A stretch of DNA of 64,000 nt from a bacterium (lineage in GTDB: Bacteria > Myxococcota > UBA727 > JAUIJE01): positions 387,460 to 451,459 of the forward strand of contig JAUIJE010000005.1 of the NCBI GenBank assembly GCA_030431455.1, written 5' to 3'. The position numbers were made by a program, and so were the translations under genes. The notes beneath the pieces are model-generated. The model worked only from the letters and a program-made list of their open reading frames with translations, made no database searches and had not been told where the DNA came from. Below, piece by piece: positions 12,781-49,341 of this stretch. Every line of letters begins with the position of its first letter. The stretch's first letter is position 1.

Positions 12781-12867
12781 GCCGGAGTGGTGGAATTGGT
12801 AGACACGACGGATTCAAAATCCGTTGGGGGCGACCCCGTGTCGGTTCGAGTCCGACCTTCGGTACCA
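12781..12867 (+). tRNA. tRNA-Leu (anticodon CAA)
   Basis: 87 nt. Acceptor stem GCCGGAG/CTTCGGT (with G.U pairs). Anticodon stem ACGGA/TCCGT with loop TTCAAAA gives CAA. Long variable arm with a GGGG/CCCC stem. T-loop GGTTCGAGTCC. Discriminator A and encoded CCA. Confidence 0.85.
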
Positions 12868-12978: not shown

Positions 12979-14181
12979 ATGTCGCGGCTCGTGTTGGTGG
13001 TGGTGGTGGTGTGTTCGACGTTGGTGTGGGGCACGGGGTGTCCCCCCGCGGAGGGCTGTCTGGAAGATGAGTCGCGCGCCTGCACCTGCACCGACGGCAA
13101 CACCGGGGCCCAGGTGTGCCAGGCCGATGGCACCCTCGGCGAATGTATCTGCACAGGAGACGGGGATGGCGACGGGGATGGAGATGGAGATGGAGACGGT
13201 GACGGGGACGGAGATGGCGACGGAGATGGCGACGGGGATGGCGACGGGGATGGCGACGGGGATGGCCACGGGGATGGCGACGGGGATGGCGACGGGGATG
13301 GCGACGGGGATGGCGACGGGGATGGAGACCTGTGCGGCAACGGGGTGATCGACCCCGGCGAAGACTGCGACGGCGAGGCCCTGGGGGGCGCGGATTGCGG
13401 CAGCCAGGGCTACGACTTCGGGCTGCTCGGCTGCACCGACTGCGCGTTCGACGCGTCCGCGTGTGGGGACGGGTGTGGGCCCTACCCCGCCGCGCTCGAC
13501 GTCAGCGACGTGTGCCGGCAATGCGCCGACGCGCGGTGCTGTGACGAGCTGAGCGCTTGTGTCCCCGGGTCGGCGTGCGATGACTACAACGGCTGCGTCA
13601 CCGCCTGCGCGGACAACCCCGGCTGCGTGCTGCAGTGCGAGAGCGACTTCGCCGCGGGCAAGTTCGACGCGGACGCGCTCGCCGCCTGCGCCCCCTCCTG
13701 CGCGGGCCTGTGCAGTAACAATGGGGTGTGCGCGTCCTCGCTCACCACCACCTTCGACACCGTGGACACGTGCGTCGACGCCAACTGCTGCACGCCGTTT
13801 GACGCCTGCCTCGGCGACGACGCGTGCACCGCCTGCCTCACCGGCGGCACCCTGGCCCCCGGCTGCGACACCAACCCGCTGCTCAGCGACATGACCACCT
13901 GCCAGGAGACCTCGTGTCCCTCCTCGCTGTGCGGCTCACCGCTGAGCGTGAACACCATCGAGGGCGCGCCCCTCGTCGACTGCCACCTGTGCGTCGAGAA
14001 CGCGGGCTGTTGCGCCGACCTCGCGGACTGTTTGGGAGGGGGCACCGAGGACGAAGTCGCGGACTGCATCGCCTGCCTCAACGACGACCCGATCGAGTGT
14101 CCGGTGGGCCCGGTGCAAGACGCGGCCAACGCGTTCCTGGCCTGTCAGATGACCCCGTGCCAAGCCGCGTGCAGCCTTTGA
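12979..14181 (+). CDS. secreted Cys-rich lipoprotein with an (Asp-Gly)29 tract and a Myxococcus cysteine-rich repeat module
   Basis: ATG at 12979 preceded by GGGAGG. Signal [21 protein letters not shown]. Then GDGDGD... followed by [23 protein letters not shown] (TIGR02232-like). About 60 Cys in total. The track ORF 12769..14181 includes the tRNA and is over-extended. Confidence 0.7.
13156..13329 (+). repeat. tandem hexanucleotide repeat (GAYGGN)29 encoding (Gly-Asp)n, in frame inside the CDS
   Basis: Direct reading: gga gac ggg gat ggc gac ggg gat ... with one GHG interruption. Confidence 0.9.
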
Positions 14182-15214: not shown

Positions 15215-16795
15215 ATGACCGACGGACAGCTCGGCGGCAGCCTCGAGGACCTCGAGCTCGACGAGGTCGTTCGCGTCATCGGCCTCTCGCGCCGGTCTGG
15301 CATCCTCCTGGTCGAGGGTCCCTGGGGCCGGGCCGAGATGGTGTTCGTGGTGGGCCACATCCGGTCCGTGCGCCACTCCGCGTCGACGGAGACGGTGGCC
15401 GACGTGTTGCTGCGCGCGGGGGTGTTTCATCCCCATGACCTGGTGAGCGACCCCGGCCGCACCGTCGACGACATCCTCCGGGACAAGAGCCGCACCGCGG
15501 TGGACGCGGCCACCCGCGCCGACGATGCGCTCCTCGAGCACATGGAAAAGACCGTGCTCGACGTGTTCGCTTACCGGCAGGGCACGTTCCGCTTTTCCCT
15601 CACCGAGCCGGGCCCCTGCCCCGACCGGTACCCGCGCGACACCACGTACATCGTGGCCGAAGGCCTCGACGCCGAACAGACCTGTGAGCGGGCCAAAAAG
15701 CGCCGCGGCCGCGGCCGCCATTCGCTGACCAAGACCCCGGGGCGCGAGGCCGACCAAGCCCCGGAGATCCTGGTCGTCGACGACGACCCCCGCTTCCTCG
15801 ACCGGTGCGCCCGGGCCCTGGAGGGGGCCGGGGTCCCGTTCCAGACCCTCGACGACGCGCGCCAAGGGTTGGACGCCCTCGACGCCCTCGCCGACAACCC
15901 CCGCGCGGTGTTGATCCTCGACCTGGTCATGCCCCGCCCCAACGGACGGGGCCTGCTCGGGGGCTTGCATCTGTTGCGTTTGGCCAGCCAACAGGGGGTC
16001 GCGGACCGCGTGTACATGGCGTTCGATCGCGCCCACGACGACGCCCATTCGATCTGCCTCGAGCTCGGCGCGGCCCAGGTGCTGAAAAAGCCGTCCGGGG
16101 TGCAACCCATCGGCCTGATGTTCAACCCCGTGCTCGAGCACCTCGGCCGCCCCCCCCTCCTGGCCGAACCCATCGATCTGGTGGGCGAGCTGCGCCAAGA
16201 GCTGGGCGAATCCGCCACCGAGTGGTCGGCCGATCCCGACCTCGACCTCGACGACGCCGCCCGCGGCCTGGAGATCCTGAAGTCGCTCCTCGCCCAGGTC
16301 AACAACCCCACCTACGAAGAAGAGATTCCGCTGTTGCTGTTGCGGTTCTCGTCGGCGTTCTTCTCGCGGGGGGCCCTGTTTGTGCCCCACGAACCCGACA
16401 ACAAACTCATCGGGCTCGGCGGCTACGGCGTCGGGCAGGCCGACCCGGGGCGCACCATTCACGCGCTGCACATCCCCCTCGCCGCCGACACCGTGTTCTC
16501 GCGCGCGATGCGCGAAAACACCGGGGTGCGCCAACCCTTTTTCGAGAGCGAATGGAACCTCCGCCTCACCGAGGCCCTCGGCGGCCCCCGCCCCCGCGAG
16601 GTGTACACCGCGCCGTTGCTCAGCCCGCGCGGGGTCGAAGCCGTGCTCTACGCCGACAACGCCCTCGACGACCACCCGTTCCCCGACATCACCCTGCTGG
16701 AGATTTTTCTCCAGCAGGCCGGGGCCGCGCTGGAGCGTTCGGACCTGGTGCGTGAGGTGCGCAACCTCAGCCAGCCGCCGATGGACGCACGCTGA
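15215..16795 (+). CDS. PATAN (DUF4388) - receiver (REC) - GAF domain regulator
   Basis: N-terminus DLELDEVVRVIGLSRRSGILLVE is PATAN-like. ILVVDDDPRF...VLILDLVMP...KKP is CheY-like REC. A C-terminal GAF-like region follows. Its stop overlaps the next start (TGATG). Confidence 0.7.
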   Translation: MTDGQLGGSLEDLELDEVVRVIGLSRRSGILLVEGPWGRAEMVFVVGHIRSVRHSASTETVADVLLRAGVFHPHDLVSDPGRTVDDILRDKSRTAVDAATRADDALLEHMEKTVLDVFAYRQGTFRFSLTEPGPCPDRYPRDTTYIVAEGLDAEQTCERAKKRRGRGRHSLTKTPGREADQAPEILVVDDDPRFLDRCARALEGAGVPFQTLDDARQGLDALDALADNPRAVLILDLVMPRPNGRGLLGGLHLLRLASQQGVADRVYMAFDRAHDDAHSICLELGAAQVLKKPSGVQPIGLMFNPVLEHLGRPPLLAEPIDLVGELRQELGESATEWSADPDLDLDDAARGLEILKSLLAQVNNPTYEEEIPLLLLRFSSAFFSRGALFVPHEPDNKLIGLGGYGVGQADPGRTIHALHIPLAADTVFSRAMRENTGVRQPFFESEWNLRLTEALGGPRPREVYTAPLLSPRGVEAVLYADNALDDHPFPDITLLEIFLQQAGAALERSDLVREVRNLSQPPMDAR

Positions 16796-17754
16796 TGCGC
16801 GGGGGCCGCCCCGCCGTCACAGTGGCATTGGTCGCGGTCGCCGCCGCCTGCCCCGCCCCCTACCCCGACGTGGACGCCTGGACCGAGCTCGCCCCCCTCG
16901 GCGGCGGGCCTCGCCAGGAGAGCGCGGTGGTCAACCTGCGCGACGAGGTCGTGGTCGTGGGCGGGGTGGACGCGGCCTCCAACACCCTCGCCACCGTCGA
17001 GGCCTACGACGTGGCCGGCGACGCCTGGCGCCGCCTCGCGGACCTGCCGGTGACCGCCCATCACGCGCACGTCGCCAGCTGCGGCGACCGCTTGTTTGTG
17101 CTCGGGTTTCTGCAAGGGCTCTCGTTCACCCCTGACCCCCGCGGCTTCGTGTACGACCCCGACGACGACGCGTGGTCGCCGGTGGCGGCCTTGCCCGCGC
17201 CCCACGACCGCGGCGGCGGCATCGCGTTGTGCGCATCCGACGGCGTGTACGTCATCGGTGGCCTCGCCGGCAACCCCGTGGCCACCGTGCACCGCTACGA
17301 CCCCGACGCGGACAGCTATGCTCAATTGGCCGACCTCCCCGCGGTGACCGACCACCTCGTGGGCGGGGTGATCGACGACGAAATCTTCGTGGCCGGGGGG
17401 CGCAACCGGTCCATCCGCGCCCACCGGGCGGATGTGTGGCGCTACGACCGCGCCGGTGACGCCTGGGTCGCGGGGGCGGACATGCCCACCTCCCGGGCCG
17501 GGGCCGCGGCCGCGGTGTCGGGCGGCGAGCTGTTCGTGTTCGGCGGCGAGGGGGACGCAAACGCCTCGAGCGGGGTGTTCGCCGAGGTCGAGGCCTACGA
17601 CCCGGTCTCCGATACCTGGCGCGAGCTCGATGACATGCCCCGGCCGCGCCACGGCATGGGGGCCGCGGCCGTGGGCAATGCCATTTACATCCCCGGCGGG
17701 GCCGACGTGCAGGGCTTTGCCGCGATCTCGCTACACGACAAATTCACGCCCTAG
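16795..17754 (+). CDS. Kelch-repeat beta-propeller lipoprotein
   Basis: 319 aa. Signal ending AAAC. Six repeats with GG-x-YD/WxxxxxMP motifs. Confidence 0.75.
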   Translation: MRGGRPAVTVALVAVAAACPAPYPDVDAWTELAPLGGGPRQESAVVNLRDEVVVVGGVDAASNTLATVEAYDVAGDAWRRLADLPVTAHHAHVASCGDRLFVLGFLQGLSFTPDPRGFVYDPDDDAWSPVAALPAPHDRGGGIALCASDGVYVIGGLAGNPVATVHRYDPDADSYAQLADLPAVTDHLVGGVIDDEIFVAGGRNRSIRAHRADVWRYDRAGDAWVAGADMPTSRAGAAAAVSGGELFVFGGEGDANASSGVFAEVEAYDPVSDTWRELDDMPRPRHGMGAAAVGNAIYIPGGADVQGFAAISLHDKFTP

Positions 17755-17766
17755 CCCGCGGCGGGC

Positions 17767-19776
17767 TCAGCCGCGCCGGCGCGACCGACCGCGCCCGCCG
17801 CCACCGCCCCCCGAGCGGCCCCCGGAGCGCCCTCCCGAGCGACCACCCGACCGCGACCGCCGCGAACGACGGGGCCGGCTCGCGCGCTGGCCCTTCTTGG
17901 GTTGTTTGTACTTTTTGTTGTGGGCCTCGGCGACGACCTTCCACTTCTGGACCTCGGCGAAGTCGCCGCCCTCGGCCTGGGTCCGGATGATCAGCAGCAG
18001 CAAGGCATCGCGGAACCAGGGCCGGGACACCAACGACTTCGCCGGCGCGCCGTAACGCCAGCCGGGCAACAAGGACTCTTGGGCCCCGAGCAGCAGCCGC
18101 GCCGACTCCCGATCGCGCCGGGTCATGCGGATGCGCTCGGCCCACTTGTCCCCGATGTCGTCGACGAACTGGGCGCCATCGAGCCCGCCGGCCACCGCCG
18201 CGTCGTACGCGGGGGTGAGCAACACCGAGAGCGCGACCGCGCTGTTCACGTCCGCTTCGCGGGCCGCGACCTCGTCGAGGGCGCCGAGCAACTTGTCGAG
18301 CAGCTCCCAGCGGGCCGCGGGCTCGAGCGGCGCCGCGGGCACGGGGAGGCGACCGGGGTCGAGGTCGTCGTCCTGGTCGTCGCGTCGCTTGCCCCCTTTG
18401 TCCCCTTCGCTCCCCTCGGCGTCGCCGGACAGCTGGGCCGCGATCCCGACCACGTCGTCGTCGTCATCGTCGTCGTCCCCGTCATCGAAGCTGTCGATGT
18501 CCACCGTCTTGGGCCGCTCGCCCTCGGCCTGGGCCTCGGCCGCGTCCTCGGCTTTGGTCTCATCGTCGGCGGGGGCCGTGTCTTTCGAACCCGCGTCAGA
18601 CGCCGCCGCCTCCACCACCGGCGCCTGCCGGGCCGCGTCCATCGCCTCCACCAACTCGGGCAGCAACGTCTGGGTCACCCCGAAATCCGCGCACATCGCC
18701 ATCGCCTCGCGGGCGTGGCCCGAGGTCAAAAGCCGGTTGAGCTCTTCGAGCAGGCGGGCCGGCGCGCACCGCAGCAGCTCTTTGGCGTGCTCGCGCATCG
18801 CGCTTTTGACATCCTCGTCGAGGGTGAACCCCATGCGGGTGGCGAACTTGATCGCGCGCAGGATGCGCACCGGATCTTCTTGGAACCGGATGTGGGGGTC
18901 GCCGATGCTGCGCAACAGCCGCTTTTCGAGGTCCTCGCGGCCGTTGACGTAGTCGATGACCTTGCCCGCGATGGGGTCGTAGAACAGCCCGTTGATGGTG
19001 AAGTCGCGGCGCACCGCGTCCTCCTCGACGTTGCCGAACTCGTTGTCCCGCTCGACGAGCAGGTCCTGGTCCCCGGTGTCCTCGGTGGTCTCCTCGTCCC
19101 CGTCGCTGTCCCCGTCGCCGTCGTTGTCGTCCGGGGTCGGATTCTTCCGGAAGGTGGCGGTCTCGATCACCTTGCCCCCCGCGAACAACACGTGGGCCAG
19201 GCGGAAGCGGCGGCCCACCAGCCGGCAGTTGCGGAACACCGACTTGACCTCGTCGGGGTGGGCGGCGGTGGCCACGTCAAAATCCTTCGGTTCGCGCCCG
19301 AGCAACAAGTCGCGCACGCACCCCCCGGTGAGATACGCCTCGTGCCCCTTGGCCCGAAGACGGCGCACCACCCACAGCGCGTCGTTGTCGATCTTCTTGA
19401 GCGGAATCTCGGGGGGGTCGCCGCTCTCCTCGGCGCCTTGTTCGTCGTCGTCGTCGCGGTCGTCGTCCGCGTCGTCCCCTTCGCCGCCCCCTCGACGTCC
19501 CCGGGCCGCGGGGCGGGCGAGGCGCTCGGTGCGTTCGTCGTCGTCCGCATCATCGTCGCCCCCGTCGTCATCGTCGGCGTCATCCTCGTCGTCCGCGCCG
19601 TCGTCATCGTCGGCGGCCGAGGCCTGGGGTTCTTCTTCTTCCTCTTCCTCGTCGCTGTCGTCGCCGGAGGCCGCGGTCACGGGGCCGGACTCGGTGGAGA
19701 CCTCTTCGATCTCCATGGTCTCGGTGTCGTCGTGCTCAGCGTTGGTGTCTTTGTCATCTTGCATGGTCATGGCCAT
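17767..19776 (-). CDS. pcnB: poly(A) polymerase I with a ~250 aa acidic (D/E-rich) N-terminal extension and an Arg/Gly/Ser-rich C-terminal tail
   Basis: Head domain LTGGCVRDLLLGREPKDFDVAT. RRDFTINGLFYD. PcnB-type probe-binding region. Start MAMTMQDD chosen (cat 19774-19776). The track ORF extends to 20601 in frame but overlaps coaX. Tail (SGGR)n. Confidence 0.8.
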   Translation of the reverse strand: MAMTMQDDKDTNAEHDDTETMEIEEVSTESGPVTAASGDDSDEEEEEEEPQASAADDDDGADDEDDADDDDGGDDDADDDERTERLARPAARGRRGGGEGDDADDDRDDDDEQGAEESGDPPEIPLKKIDNDALWVVRRLRAKGHEAYLTGGCVRDLLLGREPKDFDVATAAHPDEVKSVFRNCRLVGRRFRLAHVLFAGGKVIETATFRKNPTPDDNDGDGDSDGDEETTEDTGDQDLLVERDNEFGNVEEDAVRRDFTINGLFYDPIAGKVIDYVNGREDLEKRLLRSIGDPHIRFQEDPVRILRAIKFATRMGFTLDEDVKSAMREHAKELLRCAPARLLEELNRLLTSGHAREAMAMCADFGVTQTLLPELVEAMDAARQAPVVEAAASDAGSKDTAPADDETKAEDAAEAQAEGERPKTVDIDSFDDGDDDDDDDDVVGIAAQLSGDAEGSEGDKGGKRRDDQDDDLDPGRLPVPAAPLEPAARWELLDKLLGALDEVAAREADVNSAVALSVLLTPAYDAAVAGGLDGAQFVDDIGDKWAERIRMTRRDRESARLLLGAQESLLPGWRYGAPAKSLVSRPWFRDALLLLIIRTQAEGGDFAEVQKWKVVAEAHNKKYKQPKKGQRASRPRRSRRSRSGGRSGGRSGGRSGGGGGGRGRSRRRG

Positions 19777-19784
19777 TGGTCCTG

Positions 19785-20585
19785 TTATTTGGCGGAACCG
19801 CCCGGGCCTTTGCGCCGGACATCGCGGTTCATGTCGTAGAGTATGCGGAGGCCGTCGAGGGTCAAAAACTCGTCGACGGTGTCGATGGTTCGACTTTCCT
19901 CCGCGATGAGGTGCGCGAGGCCACCGGTGGCCATCACCTTGGTGCCTTCGCCCAGTTCTTGTTGCATGCGGCCGGCGAGCTCGTCGACCAGACCGACATA
20001 TCCGTAAAAGAGCCCCGACTGGAGGGCCCCGATGGTGTTCTTTCCCACCACCCGCTGCGGCCGGCGAATCTCGACCCGCGGCAGCTTCGCCGCCCGGCGA
20101 AACAGCGCGTCCATCGAGACCACCACCCCGGGGGCGATGGCTCCCCCGAGGTAGGCGCCGTCTTCCCGCACCGCATCGAAGGTGGTCGCGGTCCCGAAGT
20201 CGACGACGATGAGCGCACACTTGAACCGGGTCCAAGCCGCCACCGCGTTGACGATGCGGTCCGCCCCCACCTCGGCCGGTTGGTCGGTGAGGATGGGCAT
20301 TTGGGTTTTGACCCCCGGGCCGACCACAATCGGCTCGAACCCGAAGTACCGCAGGCTCGCTTCTTCGAACGCACGGTTGAGCTGCGGCACGACGCTGGCG
20401 AGGATCACGCCCTCGATTTGCGTGGGCTCGACGCCCTGTCGCTCCAGCAGCGACAAGACGAGCGTCCCGTATTCGTCCGCGGTCCCCGACGCCATGGTCG
20501 AGATGCGGAAATGGTGCGTGAGCTGCTCGCCCTCGTAGAGGCCGAGCACGGTGTTGGTGTTGCCCACGTCGATGACCAGCAGCAT
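19785..20585 (-). CDS. coaX: type III pantothenate kinase
   Basis: MLLVIDVGNTNTVLGL. DFGTATTFD. GGLA. 266 aa. Confidence 0.9.
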   Translation of the reverse strand: MLLVIDVGNTNTVLGLYEGEQLTHHFRISTMASGTADEYGTLVLSLLERQGVEPTQIEGVILASVVPQLNRAFEEASLRYFGFEPIVVGPGVKTQMPILTDQPAEVGADRIVNAVAAWTRFKCALIVVDFGTATTFDAVREDGAYLGGAIAPGVVVSMDALFRRAAKLPRVEIRRPQRVVGKNTIGALQSGLFYGYVGLVDELAGRMQQELGEGTKVMATGGLAHLIAEESRTIDTVDEFLTLDGLRILYDMNRDVRRKGPGGSAK

Positions 20586-20615
20586 CTGCGCCGCTTAGCA
20601 CCCTCTTGGCGGGCG

Positions 20616-44986: not shown

Positions 44987-46006
44987 TCAGCGGGCCAGCG
45001 ACCGCTTGAGCAGACGCTGCGCGTAGGTCGCGTCGCTCGCCACCCGGGCGTTGCTCGAGTGCGCGAGCTGCTCGACGCCGGCGAGGGACGCCGGGTGGCC
45101 GATGGTGGCCAGGCTTTGCGCGGCCGATTTCGCGGCCGAGGTGCCGGCGACTTGCGGCAGGACCTCGACGAGGAGCAACGCGGCCTTTTTGCGCAGCTCA
45201 TCGCCCCCGCCGGTGGACTGGTGGGCCCACTTGCTGCCGAGGTTGCCCAGGGCGCGGATCGCGGTCTCGCGGCGGGCCGCGTCCCCGCTCTTCACGGTGC
45301 GGGCGAGCACCGCCAGCGACGCGTCGGTGCGCACCTTGCCGAGGCCGACCAGGGCCCCGTGGTGCACCATCACCGGCGCGGTCTTGTCGGCCAAGGTCGC
45401 GTCGAGGACCGACACCGCGAAGGGCGCGCCGCTCTCCCCGAGCAGCTTGGCCGCGAGGGCCCGCTCGGTCACGGTGCCGGCGCTGCGGATGTCCGCGGCG
45501 AGCACGTGCCCGACCACCGGGTGCTGGCTTTTGGCCAGGGCCACGAGCACGCCCACCCGAAAGGCCTCGGCCTCTTTTTGCATCCAGGCCGGGGCGTTGG
45601 CGCGGGCGTGCGCGGGGTAGTCGGCCGCGGTCCGGGCCTTGAGGAAGTGACCGGGGAAGCGGTGGGCGAACAGGAGCGCGCCCGGGTGCAGCTTCATTTT
45701 GGTGAGGTCACCGGACACCACCGGATCGGGCCGGCGGAACCGGAGGTAGTTCTCCGGGTTGAGCCCGGCGAGGTCGGACAGGTGGGCGAGGTCGTCGCCA
45801 TGTTGCTGGATGGCCTCGAGGACCAAAGCGGTGGACACCTCGTCGAAGTTGGCGTCGGTCACCGCCGCGACCTGGGCCGGCGCGGACAAGGATTGGAGCG
45901 CCTCGGCGCTCTGCACCTGGGACAGCCCGGGCAGGCCCGCGGCCAGCGCGGTGGTGGACAAGGTGGCCACGCAGAGGCCGAGGAGGAAGGAGACGTTGCG
46001 ATTCAT
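44987..46006 (-). CDS. secreted HEAT/ARM-repeat protein
   Basis: Start MNRNVSFLLGLCVATLSTTALAAG (cat 46004-46006). Helical-repeat composition. No catalytic motif. Confidence 0.5.
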   Translation of the reverse strand: MNRNVSFLLGLCVATLSTTALAAGLPGLSQVQSAEALQSLSAPAQVAAVTDANFDEVSTALVLEAIQQHGDDLAHLSDLAGLNPENYLRFRRPDPVVSGDLTKMKLHPGALLFAHRFPGHFLKARTAADYPAHARANAPAWMQKEAEAFRVGVLVALAKSQHPVVGHVLAADIRSAGTVTERALAAKLLGESGAPFAVSVLDATLADKTAPVMVHHGALVGLGKVRTDASLAVLARTVKSGDAARRETAIRALGNLGSKWAHQSTGGGDELRKKAALLLVEVLPQVAGTSAAKSAAQSLATIGHPASLAGVEQLAHSSNARVASDATYAQRLLKRSLAR

Positions 46007-46062
46007 GTCGTTGTTCCTGTCAGAGCGATGCTTCAAAGAAAGAGTCTGGACCAGCCGGTTCA

Positions 46063-48452
<2,390 letters not shown>

Positions 48453-48642: not shown

Positions 48643-49341
48643 ATGGACCGGCTCTTCGCCCACCACCCCGCCGCGCTCGCGCCCGCCGCCGCCGCCGCGC
48701 TCGCGGCCTGGGTGCGCCACAGTGGCCACCTCGGCCAGAGCCAACTGCGGGGCACGTTTCGCGCGTCGCGCGGCTTCGGCCTGACGTTCACCGACGACAA
48801 CCGCGCGGATCTGCTCGAACGATTCCCCCGCTTGGCCCTCTTCTTGTCGCTGTGCCCGGCCAAGAGCCCGTTTTTGCCCCACCGCCGGCCCAACGCGTTT
48901 TACCTCAACGCCCTGTTCTTGGAGGCGGGCGCGGGGGTGGGCCTGCACGTCGACAGCACCCTCGGCGAGCCCGTCGGCGACGAACAAAAGAGCCCCGAGG
49001 TGGTCACGGTGCTGTACCTCGAGACCCCGGCCGCCGGGGGCCGGCTCGACCTTTTTCTCGGCCGGCGGCCGGTGCTCGACCTCACCCCCGGGGCCGGCGA
49101 CCTCCTGCATTTCCGCGGGGACCTCGGCCACCGGGTCACGCCCGTGACCGCCGGCGCCCGGTTGTCGCTCGTGCTCGAGCAGTATGACCTCACGCCCGCC
49201 GAGCGCGCGGGCCTCCCCGGCTTGGTGCTGCATTCGCGGGGGGACCGCGTGTACCCCCCCACGCCCCCGGGGCCGGGCTTTGACCGGGTGCTCGCCCGCA
49301 AACGGAAAACTGGCGTCCCGGGCGGCGCAAAAGCAGAATAG
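48643..49341 (+). CDS. 2OG-Fe(II) oxygenase superfamily protein
   Basis: GVGLHVDST (HxD), ...HFRGDLGHRVTPV (distal His), ...RLSL. Divergent from the PAD-like gene. Confidence 0.6.
   Translation: MDRLFAHHPAALAPAAAAALAAWVRHSGHLGQSQLRGTFRASRGFGLTFTDDNRADLLERFPRLALFLSLCPAKSPFLPHRRPNAFYLNALFLEAGAGVGLHVDSTLGEPVGDEQKSPEVVTVLYLETPAAGGRLDLFLGRRPVLDLTPGAGDLLHFRGDLGHRVTPVTAGARLSLVLEQYDLTPAERAGLPGLVLHSRGDRVYPPTPPGPGFDRVLARKRKTGVPGGAKAE

Follow-up and report, generated by a model that had tools for sequence, protein, structure and literature searches.

A stretch of 64,000 bp from a Myxococcota genome (assembly GCA_030431455.1, contig JAUIJE010000005.1, positions 387,460 to 451,459, forward strand) was analyzed and is referred to in its full length as the window. 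It encodes two cysteine-rich proteins, p1 and p2, each of which carries a long tract of alternating glycine and aspartate residues (GD tract) behind a signal peptide. The pattern (GAYGGN)5 had 46 matches in the window, all within the two tracts, and dinucleotide-preserving shuffles gave an expectation of 0.00. No further (GD)≥4 run was found in any of the six frames of the window. The two genes and their parts are as follows.

12979..14181, + strand: gene p1, an open reading frame (ORF) with a GGGAGG ribosome-binding site 6 nt 5' of the ATG
12979..13041, + strand: p1 signal peptide with the atypical lipobox W-G-T-G-C (Cys21)
13039..13155, + strand: p1 N-terminal Cys-rich mini-module, residues 21-59, 5' of the tract, similar to P0037
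13156..13329, + strand: p1 tract (GD)18-GH-(GD)10, residues 60-117, with the 12-nt unit GGCGACGGGGAT
13333..13467, + strand: p1 Cys repeat immediately 3' of the tract, one copy, matching P0024-P0031 and L073
13468..14178, + strand: p1 C-terminal region with three related Cys-rich modules (C-x2-C-x6-CC-x5-C...), read from the sequence
46063..48435, - strand: gene p2, encoding a 790-aa lipoprotein with a protein-arginine deiminase (PAD) domain
48373..48435, - strand: p2 signal peptide with the canonical lipobox L-A-G-C (Cys21)
48166..48357, - strand: p2 tract (GD)32, residues 27-90
47791..48165, - strand: p2 Cys-rich module W-x-C-...-C-D-C-G-C-G-x-x-D-x-D-C, two copies, read from the sequence
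46066..47748, - strand: p2 folded C-terminal region, residues 230-790, including the PAD catalytic domain (AlphaFold2)

Both tracts are in frame. The initial annotation had described two genes with 29 to 32 perfect GD units, which holds for the (GD)32 of p2; in p1 one unit is Gly-His, with CAC in place of GAC (a G-to-C change). It had also described a lipobox in both proteins, followed directly by the tract. This is accurate for p2, where a positively charged n-region and a hydrophobic h-region precede an [LVI][ASTVI][GAS]-C lipobox within ~15-35 residues of the start and only six residues (CPMDTA, counting the lipobox Cys) separate the signal from the tract. In p1 the lipobox is atypical and a Cys module of 38 residues (CPPAEGC...CTCTDG...) stands between the signal and the tract, which is therefore located between two Cys modules.

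The p1 product is 400 amino acids in length with 50 Cys, is secreted, and its gene has a third-position GC content of 0.83. It is probably a lipoprotein. Gly occupies position -3 of the lipobox where Leu, Val or Ile is usual, and lipoprotein status is less certain for this reason. W-G-T-G-C agrees with the older, looser PROSITE-style pattern {DERK}(6)-[LIVMFWSTAG](2)-[LIVMFYSTAGCQ]-[AGS]-C. The N-terminus of p1 was 55% identical over 53 residues (E = 1e-16) to that of P0037, an otherwise unrelated protein. The G-C-P-x-x-E-G-C junction, including its Cys, is conserved in P0037, which has F-I-P-G-C. P0037 carries no GD tract and has a non-GD linker after its p1-type N-terminal module.

No Pfam or NCBIfam family matched p1 above cut-off. 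The Cys repeat type that follows the p1 tract likewise stands after GD-rich linkers in P0024-P0031 and L073. The three C-terminal modules make up the C-terminal two thirds of the protein and had no Pfam match even at E ≤ 10. A similar module stands after (GD)27 in L031.

Residues 390-786 of p2 matched Pfam PF03068 (E = 2.9e-67, 227.8 bits, cut-off 25). In alignment A1, where vertebrate PADs are represented, no variation occurs at D458, H587, D589 and C772, which correspond to the human PAD4 catalytic residues. Toward its C-terminus p2 is a protein-arginine deiminase of the family to which the vertebrate PADs belong. PF03068 has been found in only 0.43% of surveyed Proteobacteria species (PMC8826395). 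Residues 230-790 were modelled confidently by AlphaFold2. The closest relatives of p2, at ~45% identity, carry PKD domains or plain linkers rather than Cys modules, and no GD tract was present in the PAD homologues of p2. The p2 Cys module is ~50-60 residues long (P-x-G-W-x-C...Y/F...G-x-C-D-C-G-C-G-x-x-D-x-D-C) and had no Pfam (even at E ≤ 10) or NCBIfam model. It occurs in many tandem copies in the Myxococcota proteins P0007, P0008, P0013 and P0015-P0021 and may represent an undescribed extracellular repeat family.

Both proteins have Pro at position +2. Myxococcus xanthus sorts lipoproteins by residues near the +1 Cys, and Lys at +2 marks those of the inner membrane (PMC3222651). Since +2 is Pro and not Lys, a location in the outer membrane or further out is suggested for p1 and p2.

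Repeat structure and assembly of the tracts

The tracts had been described as near-perfect 6-nt arrays and as prime substrates for slipped-strand length variation. The arrays turned out to be synonymously scrambled with a 12-nt unit. Tandem Repeats Finder assigned both tracts a period of 12, p1 with 91% and p2 with 82% matches. A period of 6 is kept perfectly over at most 20 nt (p1) or 17 nt (p2), and a period of 12 over at most 58 nt (p1) or 50 nt (p2). The slippage claim was overstated for such scrambled arrays, in which changes occur in frame.

In p1 adjacent GD units (lag of 2 codons) had 6 codon matches compared to 20.9 expected, and units 12 nt apart had 39 compared to 20.1 expected (p < 5e-5). 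As adjacent units differ and units spaced by 12 nt agree, the repeat unit is GGC-GAC-GGG-GAT. This period-12 signature would indicate growth of the p1 tract through duplication of a 12-nt unit. Rare codons were enriched in the p1 tract, with GAT accounting for 50% of Asp codons compared to 10.3% in the window genes (p = 1.5e-7) and GGA for 24% compared to 3.4% (p = 4e-5). The enrichment was much weaker in p2. Across 126 coding tracts the avoidance of identical codons in adjacent units was not general (median z ~0); p1 shows it, and p2 to a lesser degree. At the DNA level most of these 126 tracts were heterogeneous.

A few homologous genes were comparable in tract length. Two genes of Enhygromyxa salina SWB007 that are 66% identical downstream have (GD)24 and (GD)10-PGT-(GD)13; a 52%-identical gene in Enhygromyxa salina DSM 15201 has (GD)20. 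A further homologous pair, 63% identical, has (GD)30 and at least 14 units. From these few comparisons tract length appears to be labile over evolutionary time. Repeat units of 6, 12 or 18 nt always keep the frame, so slippage can change the length of a tract and cannot turn the gene on or off.

RNA structure within the tracts was considered and rejected, with folding weaker than that of shuffled sequences (z = +1.8 and +3.2). No alternative nucleic-acid role is proposed because the tract RNA folds less well than shuffles. The sense strand of the p1 tract has GGGG runs every 12 nt (11 runs) and similar runs are found in p2. These would allow a G-quadruplex in the mRNA or the non-template DNA strand.

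Products identical to those of neighboring genes in the window were found on Logan short-read contigs. Two of these contigs, L116 and L117, begin at window position 48329, inside the p2 tract, and L115, the contig beside p1, ends at 12823. Other window proteins were found in Logan assemblies ERR3428548, ERR3420974, SRR24442552 and SRR33155361 and on an NCBI contig of 534,889 bp. True contig ends were abutted by 24 of 80 sampled Myxococcota tracts. GD tracts likely act as assembly breakpoints, with tract genes truncated in short-read assemblies. The exact copy numbers given here for p1 and p2 depend on the source assembly method because short-read contigs break in the p2 tract, and copy numbers in short-read assemblies should not be trusted.

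Exact look-ups of p1 and p2 in the protein collection returned no record. Homologue searches found nothing nearer than 45% identity for p2 and module-level matches only for p1. Exact-flank scans of JGI metagenome contigs gave 0 matches.

Occurrence of GD tracts in other genomes

One genome per species was scanned across 185,579 species for at least 12 GAYGGN units; the taxonomic proportions obtained are those of a sample, not a census. At least 109 loci with (GAYGGN)12 were found, and 68 of the matches listed are from Myxococcota: 29 Nannocystaceae, 14 Polyangia, 14 'Myxococcales', 8 Enhygromyxa and 3 Polyangiaceae. The window was aligned to the 109 fetched loci by blastn and matched them only at the tract region. 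None of the 109 is from the source genome.

The usual layout in the listed Myxococcota loci is a lipobox, an acidic spacer of D, G, S, T and E, (GD)10-82 and then unrelated domains. A lipobox-like motif was found upstream of the tract in 45 of the 63 listed Myxococcota in-frame GD ORFs with an intact 5' end. Median values among the matches listed were 29 residues for the distance from Cys to tract and 19 units for the tract itself, the extremes being 10 and 82 units. Spacer composition was determined for 48 lipobox-bearing GD reading frames among the matches listed, a few of them from outside the Myxococcota. The spacer between Cys and tract was 20% D, 19% G, 15% S, 14% T and 8% E, and hydrophobic residues were nearly absent. 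In these 48 lipoproteins Asp was present at +3 in 24 and at +4 in 25 (C-G/A/T-D-D; e.g. L009, L011, L024, L046, L103). This x-D-D motif could be a sorting determinant. It also occurs in gammaproteobacterial 5'-nucleotidase lipoproteins without GD tracts.

Behind the tract are found a 5'-nucleotidase (L011), domains of unknown function and Cys-rich repeats, as well as domains in L012 and L049 that by eye resemble a metallophosphatase and a subtilase, respectively. The order seen in p1 recurs in L073 from an uncultured Nannocystaceae, where a lipobox is followed by a small Cys module of the same kind, (GD)13 and CGDG...E.CDG repeats. In L037, L038 and L051 the tract is an internal linker far from any lipobox.

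A shared display scaffold had been proposed for p1 and p2. The layout does recur across the clade, in the 45 ORFs counted above. The GD linker design is clade-wide, and p1 and p2 are cases of convergent use and not of a duplicated scaffold, since their codon patterns and flanks differ and point to independent use.

The longest pure GD runs among the matches listed are from outside the Myxococcota (L002, L056, L092, L088, L075, L070). They include (GD)112 in Pseudogemmobacter, (GD)84 and (GD)54 in metagenome-assembled genomes (MAGs) of Alphaproteobacteria, (GD)124 in a Vicinamibacteria MAG and (GD)88 in a Bacteroidetes MAG. Most of these runs are not behind a lipobox. Four loci binned as 'Metamycoplasmataceae' (L026, L062, L066, L082) have perfect (GR)n, (GQ)n, (GV)n, (GE)n, (GD)n and (TL)n arrays back to back. 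Such dipeptide arrays are odd for the family and look like mis-binned simple-sequence DNA.

Literature searches on GD or DG repeats and on Enhygromyxa lipoproteins found no description of GD tracts, though the tracts are visible in public genomes.

Proposed function of the tracts and rival explanations

The (GD)n tracts are best explained as disordered, strongly acidic, polyanionic tethers or interdomain linkers, with a probability of about 0.7. In p2 the tract would be an N-terminal tether joining lipidated Cys21 to the two Cys modules and the PAD enzyme. In p1 it would be an interdomain linker that connects the small N-terminal Cys module to all that follows. A sequence-specific activity of the tract is improbable; its length, flexibility and solubility and its lack of hydrophobic and basic residues would be what counts. 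It would keep the functional domains at a distance from the membrane, and by analogy with linkers of Escherichia coli it probably aids efficient lipoprotein trafficking out of the inner membrane. Without Lys, Arg or hydrophobic residues the tracts may also be poor protease substrates. The extended-spacer option of the initial annotation fits the data, as the layout stands before many unrelated domains.

Replacement of the linker was observed among homologues of one lipoprotein. Homologues of the Enhygromyxa 5'-nucleotidase lipoprotein, with 57-68% identity in the catalytic domain, all keep a lipobox. From there to 'LTILH-NDHHSH', where the catalytic domain begins with conserved sequence, the region is filled by (GD)22, by (TDPDA)n, (PEPEPDM)n or (DDSAT)n, by collagen-like GxY repeats, by a coiled coil or by no more than ~8 residues. 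In the 5'-nucleotidase and PAD homologues position is kept while sequence is free, which is the behavior of a spacer. A function that needs the GD sequence itself is disfavored because homologues carry non-GD linkers at the same position. The GD composition would be a lineage habit of Nannocystaceae, Polyangia and related Myxococcota. The tracts most likely arose or were resized by in-frame duplication or deletion of 12 nt (or of 6 or 18 nt) followed by synonymous drift, and lengths in homologues would differ for this reason while presence and position stay.

For disorder, the p2 tract had AlphaFold2 predicted local distance difference test (pLDDT) scores of 32-43 and no secondary structure, and the alignment was empty over residues 1-229. 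A search of the PDB with (GD)32 found no solved GD tract and returned other dipeptide repeats only (E > 0.02).

Several points weigh against this explanation. Tether function in these proteins and in this clade is something we infer from the pattern of sequences, and the lipoprotein status of p1 is uncertain. A low pLDDT is weak evidence for disorder, and the Cys modules within residues 1-229 also scored low. The taxonomic proportions come from at least 109 loci that form a sample and not a census. The strict alternation of Gly and Asp is more regular than a generic spacer needs. The exact dipeptide may be selected, because GD is strict while the upstream spacers are loose. Candidates for such selection may be cation binding, protease resistance and a sorting receptor, and every D-G-D-G-D-G window fits the DxDxDG Ca2+-loop pattern. 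The strict alternation could have a neutral cause (slippage and drift) or a functional one (cation binding, protease resistance or sorting).

A functional parallel is found in Escherichia coli. About half of its outer-membrane lipoproteins have a disordered N-terminal linker of >22 residues. Normal sorting by the Lol pathway depends on this linker, and lipoproteins from which it has been deleted are misrouted. Targeting is recovered when a Gly-Ser repeat of about the same length takes its place, with a loss of efficiency for shorter linkers (bioRxiv 10.1101/2021.01.05.425367). The linkers of RcsF, NlpD and Pal (El Rayes et al.) resemble the p2 tract in that they follow the lipidated Cys, exceed 22 residues, are disordered and separate the anchor from a folded domain. 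In p2, 70 residues (CPMDTA and (GD)32) precede the first Cys module. The p1 tract differs from the Escherichia coli linkers as it is interdomain and not anchor-proximal, with a Cys module standing first. The Escherichia coli linkers tolerate changes in composition, with length and disorder being what matters. They differ from the GD tracts in having no dipeptide repeat and in not being strongly acidic, and a Lol role in Myxococcota is putative.

The serine-aspartate repeat (SDR) of the staphylococcal Clf/Sdr MSCRAMM proteins is similar to the GD tract in being an X-Asp repeat (25-275 units), in its place between anchor and domain, where it is proposed to project the domain as a spacer and to span the cell wall, and in being encoded by an imperfect higher-order DNA repeat (PMC3794999). 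It differs in being SD and not GD, in its C-terminal position, in its LPXTG sortase anchor and in its Gram-positive envelope. Its Ser residues are glycosylated with N-acetylglucosamine via SdgA and SdgB, which is impossible on GD. Clf/Sdr SD-repeat regions were the only NCBIfam matches to the GD tracts. Membership of that family was rejected, with 21-28 bits compared to cut-offs of 999-2500, matches to the low-complexity region only and no LPXTG. A Pfam TrAA12-like match (19-20 bits, cut-off 30.9) was also rejected as a low-complexity match and not homology.

The collagen-like GxY, (TDPDA)n, (PEPEPDM)n and coiled-coil segments of homologous lipoproteins occupy the same place between lipobox and catalytic domain and are acidic and/or extended and variable in length. 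They differ from (GD)n in sequence and probably in stiffness; (GD)n is the Enhygromyxa salina variant. Among the low-complexity tethers and linkers of secreted and lipid-anchored proteins, a well-known kind of element, the GD tract is a variant specific to its lineage.

Among the rival explanations, a functional Ca2+- or Mg2+-binding element was considered unlikely. In this reading the DxDxDG units would stiffen the tether to a rod, buffer Ca2+ for the PAD or nucleate mineral. The hexamer DGDGDG runs throughout both tracts and every six-residue window that opens with D reads DxDxDG. The tracts share with the DxDxDG loops of EF-hand, Excalibur and thrombospondin type 3 (TSP3) domains, and with the RTX motif GGxGxDxUx, a composition rich in Gly and Asp and an extracellular setting where Ca2+ is plentiful. 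Asp-rich disordered proteins bind Ca2+ at ~100 uM with Asp favored over Glu (PMC8391695), vertebrate PADs are regulated by Ca2+ (PMC8826395), the clade includes the marine genus Enhygromyxa and there are window proteins with acidic insertions. Canonical Ca2+ loops, however, require a bidentate Glu near position 12 and flanking structure. Position 12 of every tract window is Gly, there is no Excalibur Cys-Glu, and the tracts have neither flanking helices or strands nor the RTX hydrophobic position. No EF-hand, Excalibur, TSP3 or RTX match to p1 or p2 was found in Pfam or NCBIfam. A Starmaker peptide of high negative charge that lacks hydrophobic residues showed no Ca2+ binding (PMC8391695). The 5'-nucleotidase homologues have linkers without DxDxDG (PEPEPDM, collagen-like, coiled coil) or nearly no linker, homologues of the p2 PAD have no GD tract, and many unrelated domains stand behind GD tracts. 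Given the DxDxDG pattern of the tracts and the Ca2+ binding of other disordered proteins rich in Asp, binding of counter-ions in seawater is almost certain. Nothing, however, indicates a specific function that depends on Ca2+. A clade-specific sorting signal is less likely again, and would consist of an acidic leader (Cys-x-D-D, spacer and (GD)n) directing proteins to the surface or to outer-membrane vesicles, as in Bacteroidota. An acidic lipoprotein export signal is known from that phylum. The frequency of Asp at +3 (24/48) and +4 (25/48) would fit such a signal, as would the recognizable attached domains, which are hydrolase-like or disulfide-rich and typical of extracellular proteins. It also fits that Myxococcus xanthus sorts by residues near the +1 Cys and that p1 and p2 lack Lys at +2 (PMC3222651). 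The p1 tract, however, follows a folded module and p1 has no x-D-D, the tracts of L037, L038 and L051 are internal and far from any lipobox, and the presence of x-D-D in homologues without a GD tract makes motif and tract separable.

Rapid slipped-strand length change, giving adaptive size or antigenic variation of surface proteins from contingency loci, was judged very improbable. It would draw on the perfect 12-nt runs of up to 58 nt (p1) and 50 nt (p2), the differing tract lengths of homologous genes, the assemblies broken at tracts and the 25-275 dipeptide units of staphylococcal SD-repeat regions across family members (PMC3794999). Against this, units that are multiples of 3 permit no on/off switching, perfect period-6 runs do not exceed 20 nt and the arrays match at 82-91%. 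The heavily mixed synonymous codons with enriched GAT and GGA point to a lower slippage rate and to old, drifting arrays, and the coding arrays are mostly heterogeneous across the 126 tracts. An assembly artefact, or non-coding simple sequence mimicking coding DNA, is scarcely credible. Short-read contigs do end in the p2 tract, 24 of the 80 sampled Myxococcota tracts lie at contig ends, and p1 and p2 are missing from the protein database although several other window proteins are present. The frame is nevertheless kept from the signal peptide through the tract to well-supported domains (PAD, E = 2.9e-67), the same architecture occurs in dozens of independent genomes, and the chance expectation is zero.

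A combined possibility, which is also rather unlikely, is that Cys-x-D-D, spacer and (GD)n form a lineage-specific display device of marine Myxococcota. The polyanionic stalk with its DxDxDG pattern would be recognized for export to the surface or to vesicles, stiffened by seawater Ca2+ or Mg2+, and project enzymes that hydrolyze or modify proteins or other substrates, such as PAD, to prey or substrate. With 31 Asp-Gly bonds in a row, the stalk has the sequence most liable to form isoaspartate. If the device exists, the stalk would age chemically within days and could limit the lifetime of the displayed protein.

Window context and significance of the proposed linker

The window has a G+C content of 69% and also encodes a Ser/Thr kinase, a DUF4388/PatA_N response regulator and Kelch and MORN proteins. 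The named homologues are from Myxococcota or 'Deltaproteobacteria', and the source very probably belongs to the Myxococcota on these grounds. A poly(A) polymerase (PcnB) homologue at 17767-20601 (- strand) is interrupted by long insertions rich in Asp and Glu, among them DGDGDSDGD and nine consecutive Asp, and has an Arg/Gly/Ser-rich C-terminal tail; its listed GTG start is probably too far upstream. Acidic low-complexity insertions are not limited to secreted proteins here, because the PcnB homologue has them. A Kelch-repeat protein at 16795-17754 (+ strand) is lipoprotein-like (MRGGRPAVTVALVAVAAAC-PAPYPD) and its folded domain follows almost immediately. As this protein has no long acidic tether, such a tether is not universal in the lipoproteins of this genome.

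Downstream of p2 the sequence TGATG at 46061-46065 (- strand) overlaps the p2 stop with the ATG of a HEAT-repeat ORF (44987-46063). A second possible start of this ORF, MNRNVSFLLGLCVATL..., resembles a signal peptide. p2 and this ORF may share an operon in which their translation is coupled. A neighboring 2OG-Fe(II) oxygenase (48643-49341) was considered as a modifier of p2 and rejected, having no signal peptide and nothing connecting the pair.

The GD tracts reveal no new kind of system. The same design is common in marine myxobacteria, where it is real and fairly ordinary. The tracts lend themselves to testing whether disorder and length are all that a lipoprotein linker requires, as in Escherichia coli, or whether composition counts too. 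If the tether and linker explanation is correct, a tract would serve in annotation as a mark of the boundary between anchor and domain or between two domains. (GD)n would then be a natural, genetically simple, protease-poor and highly soluble linker which one clade has reused for secreted enzymes and Cys-rich modules.

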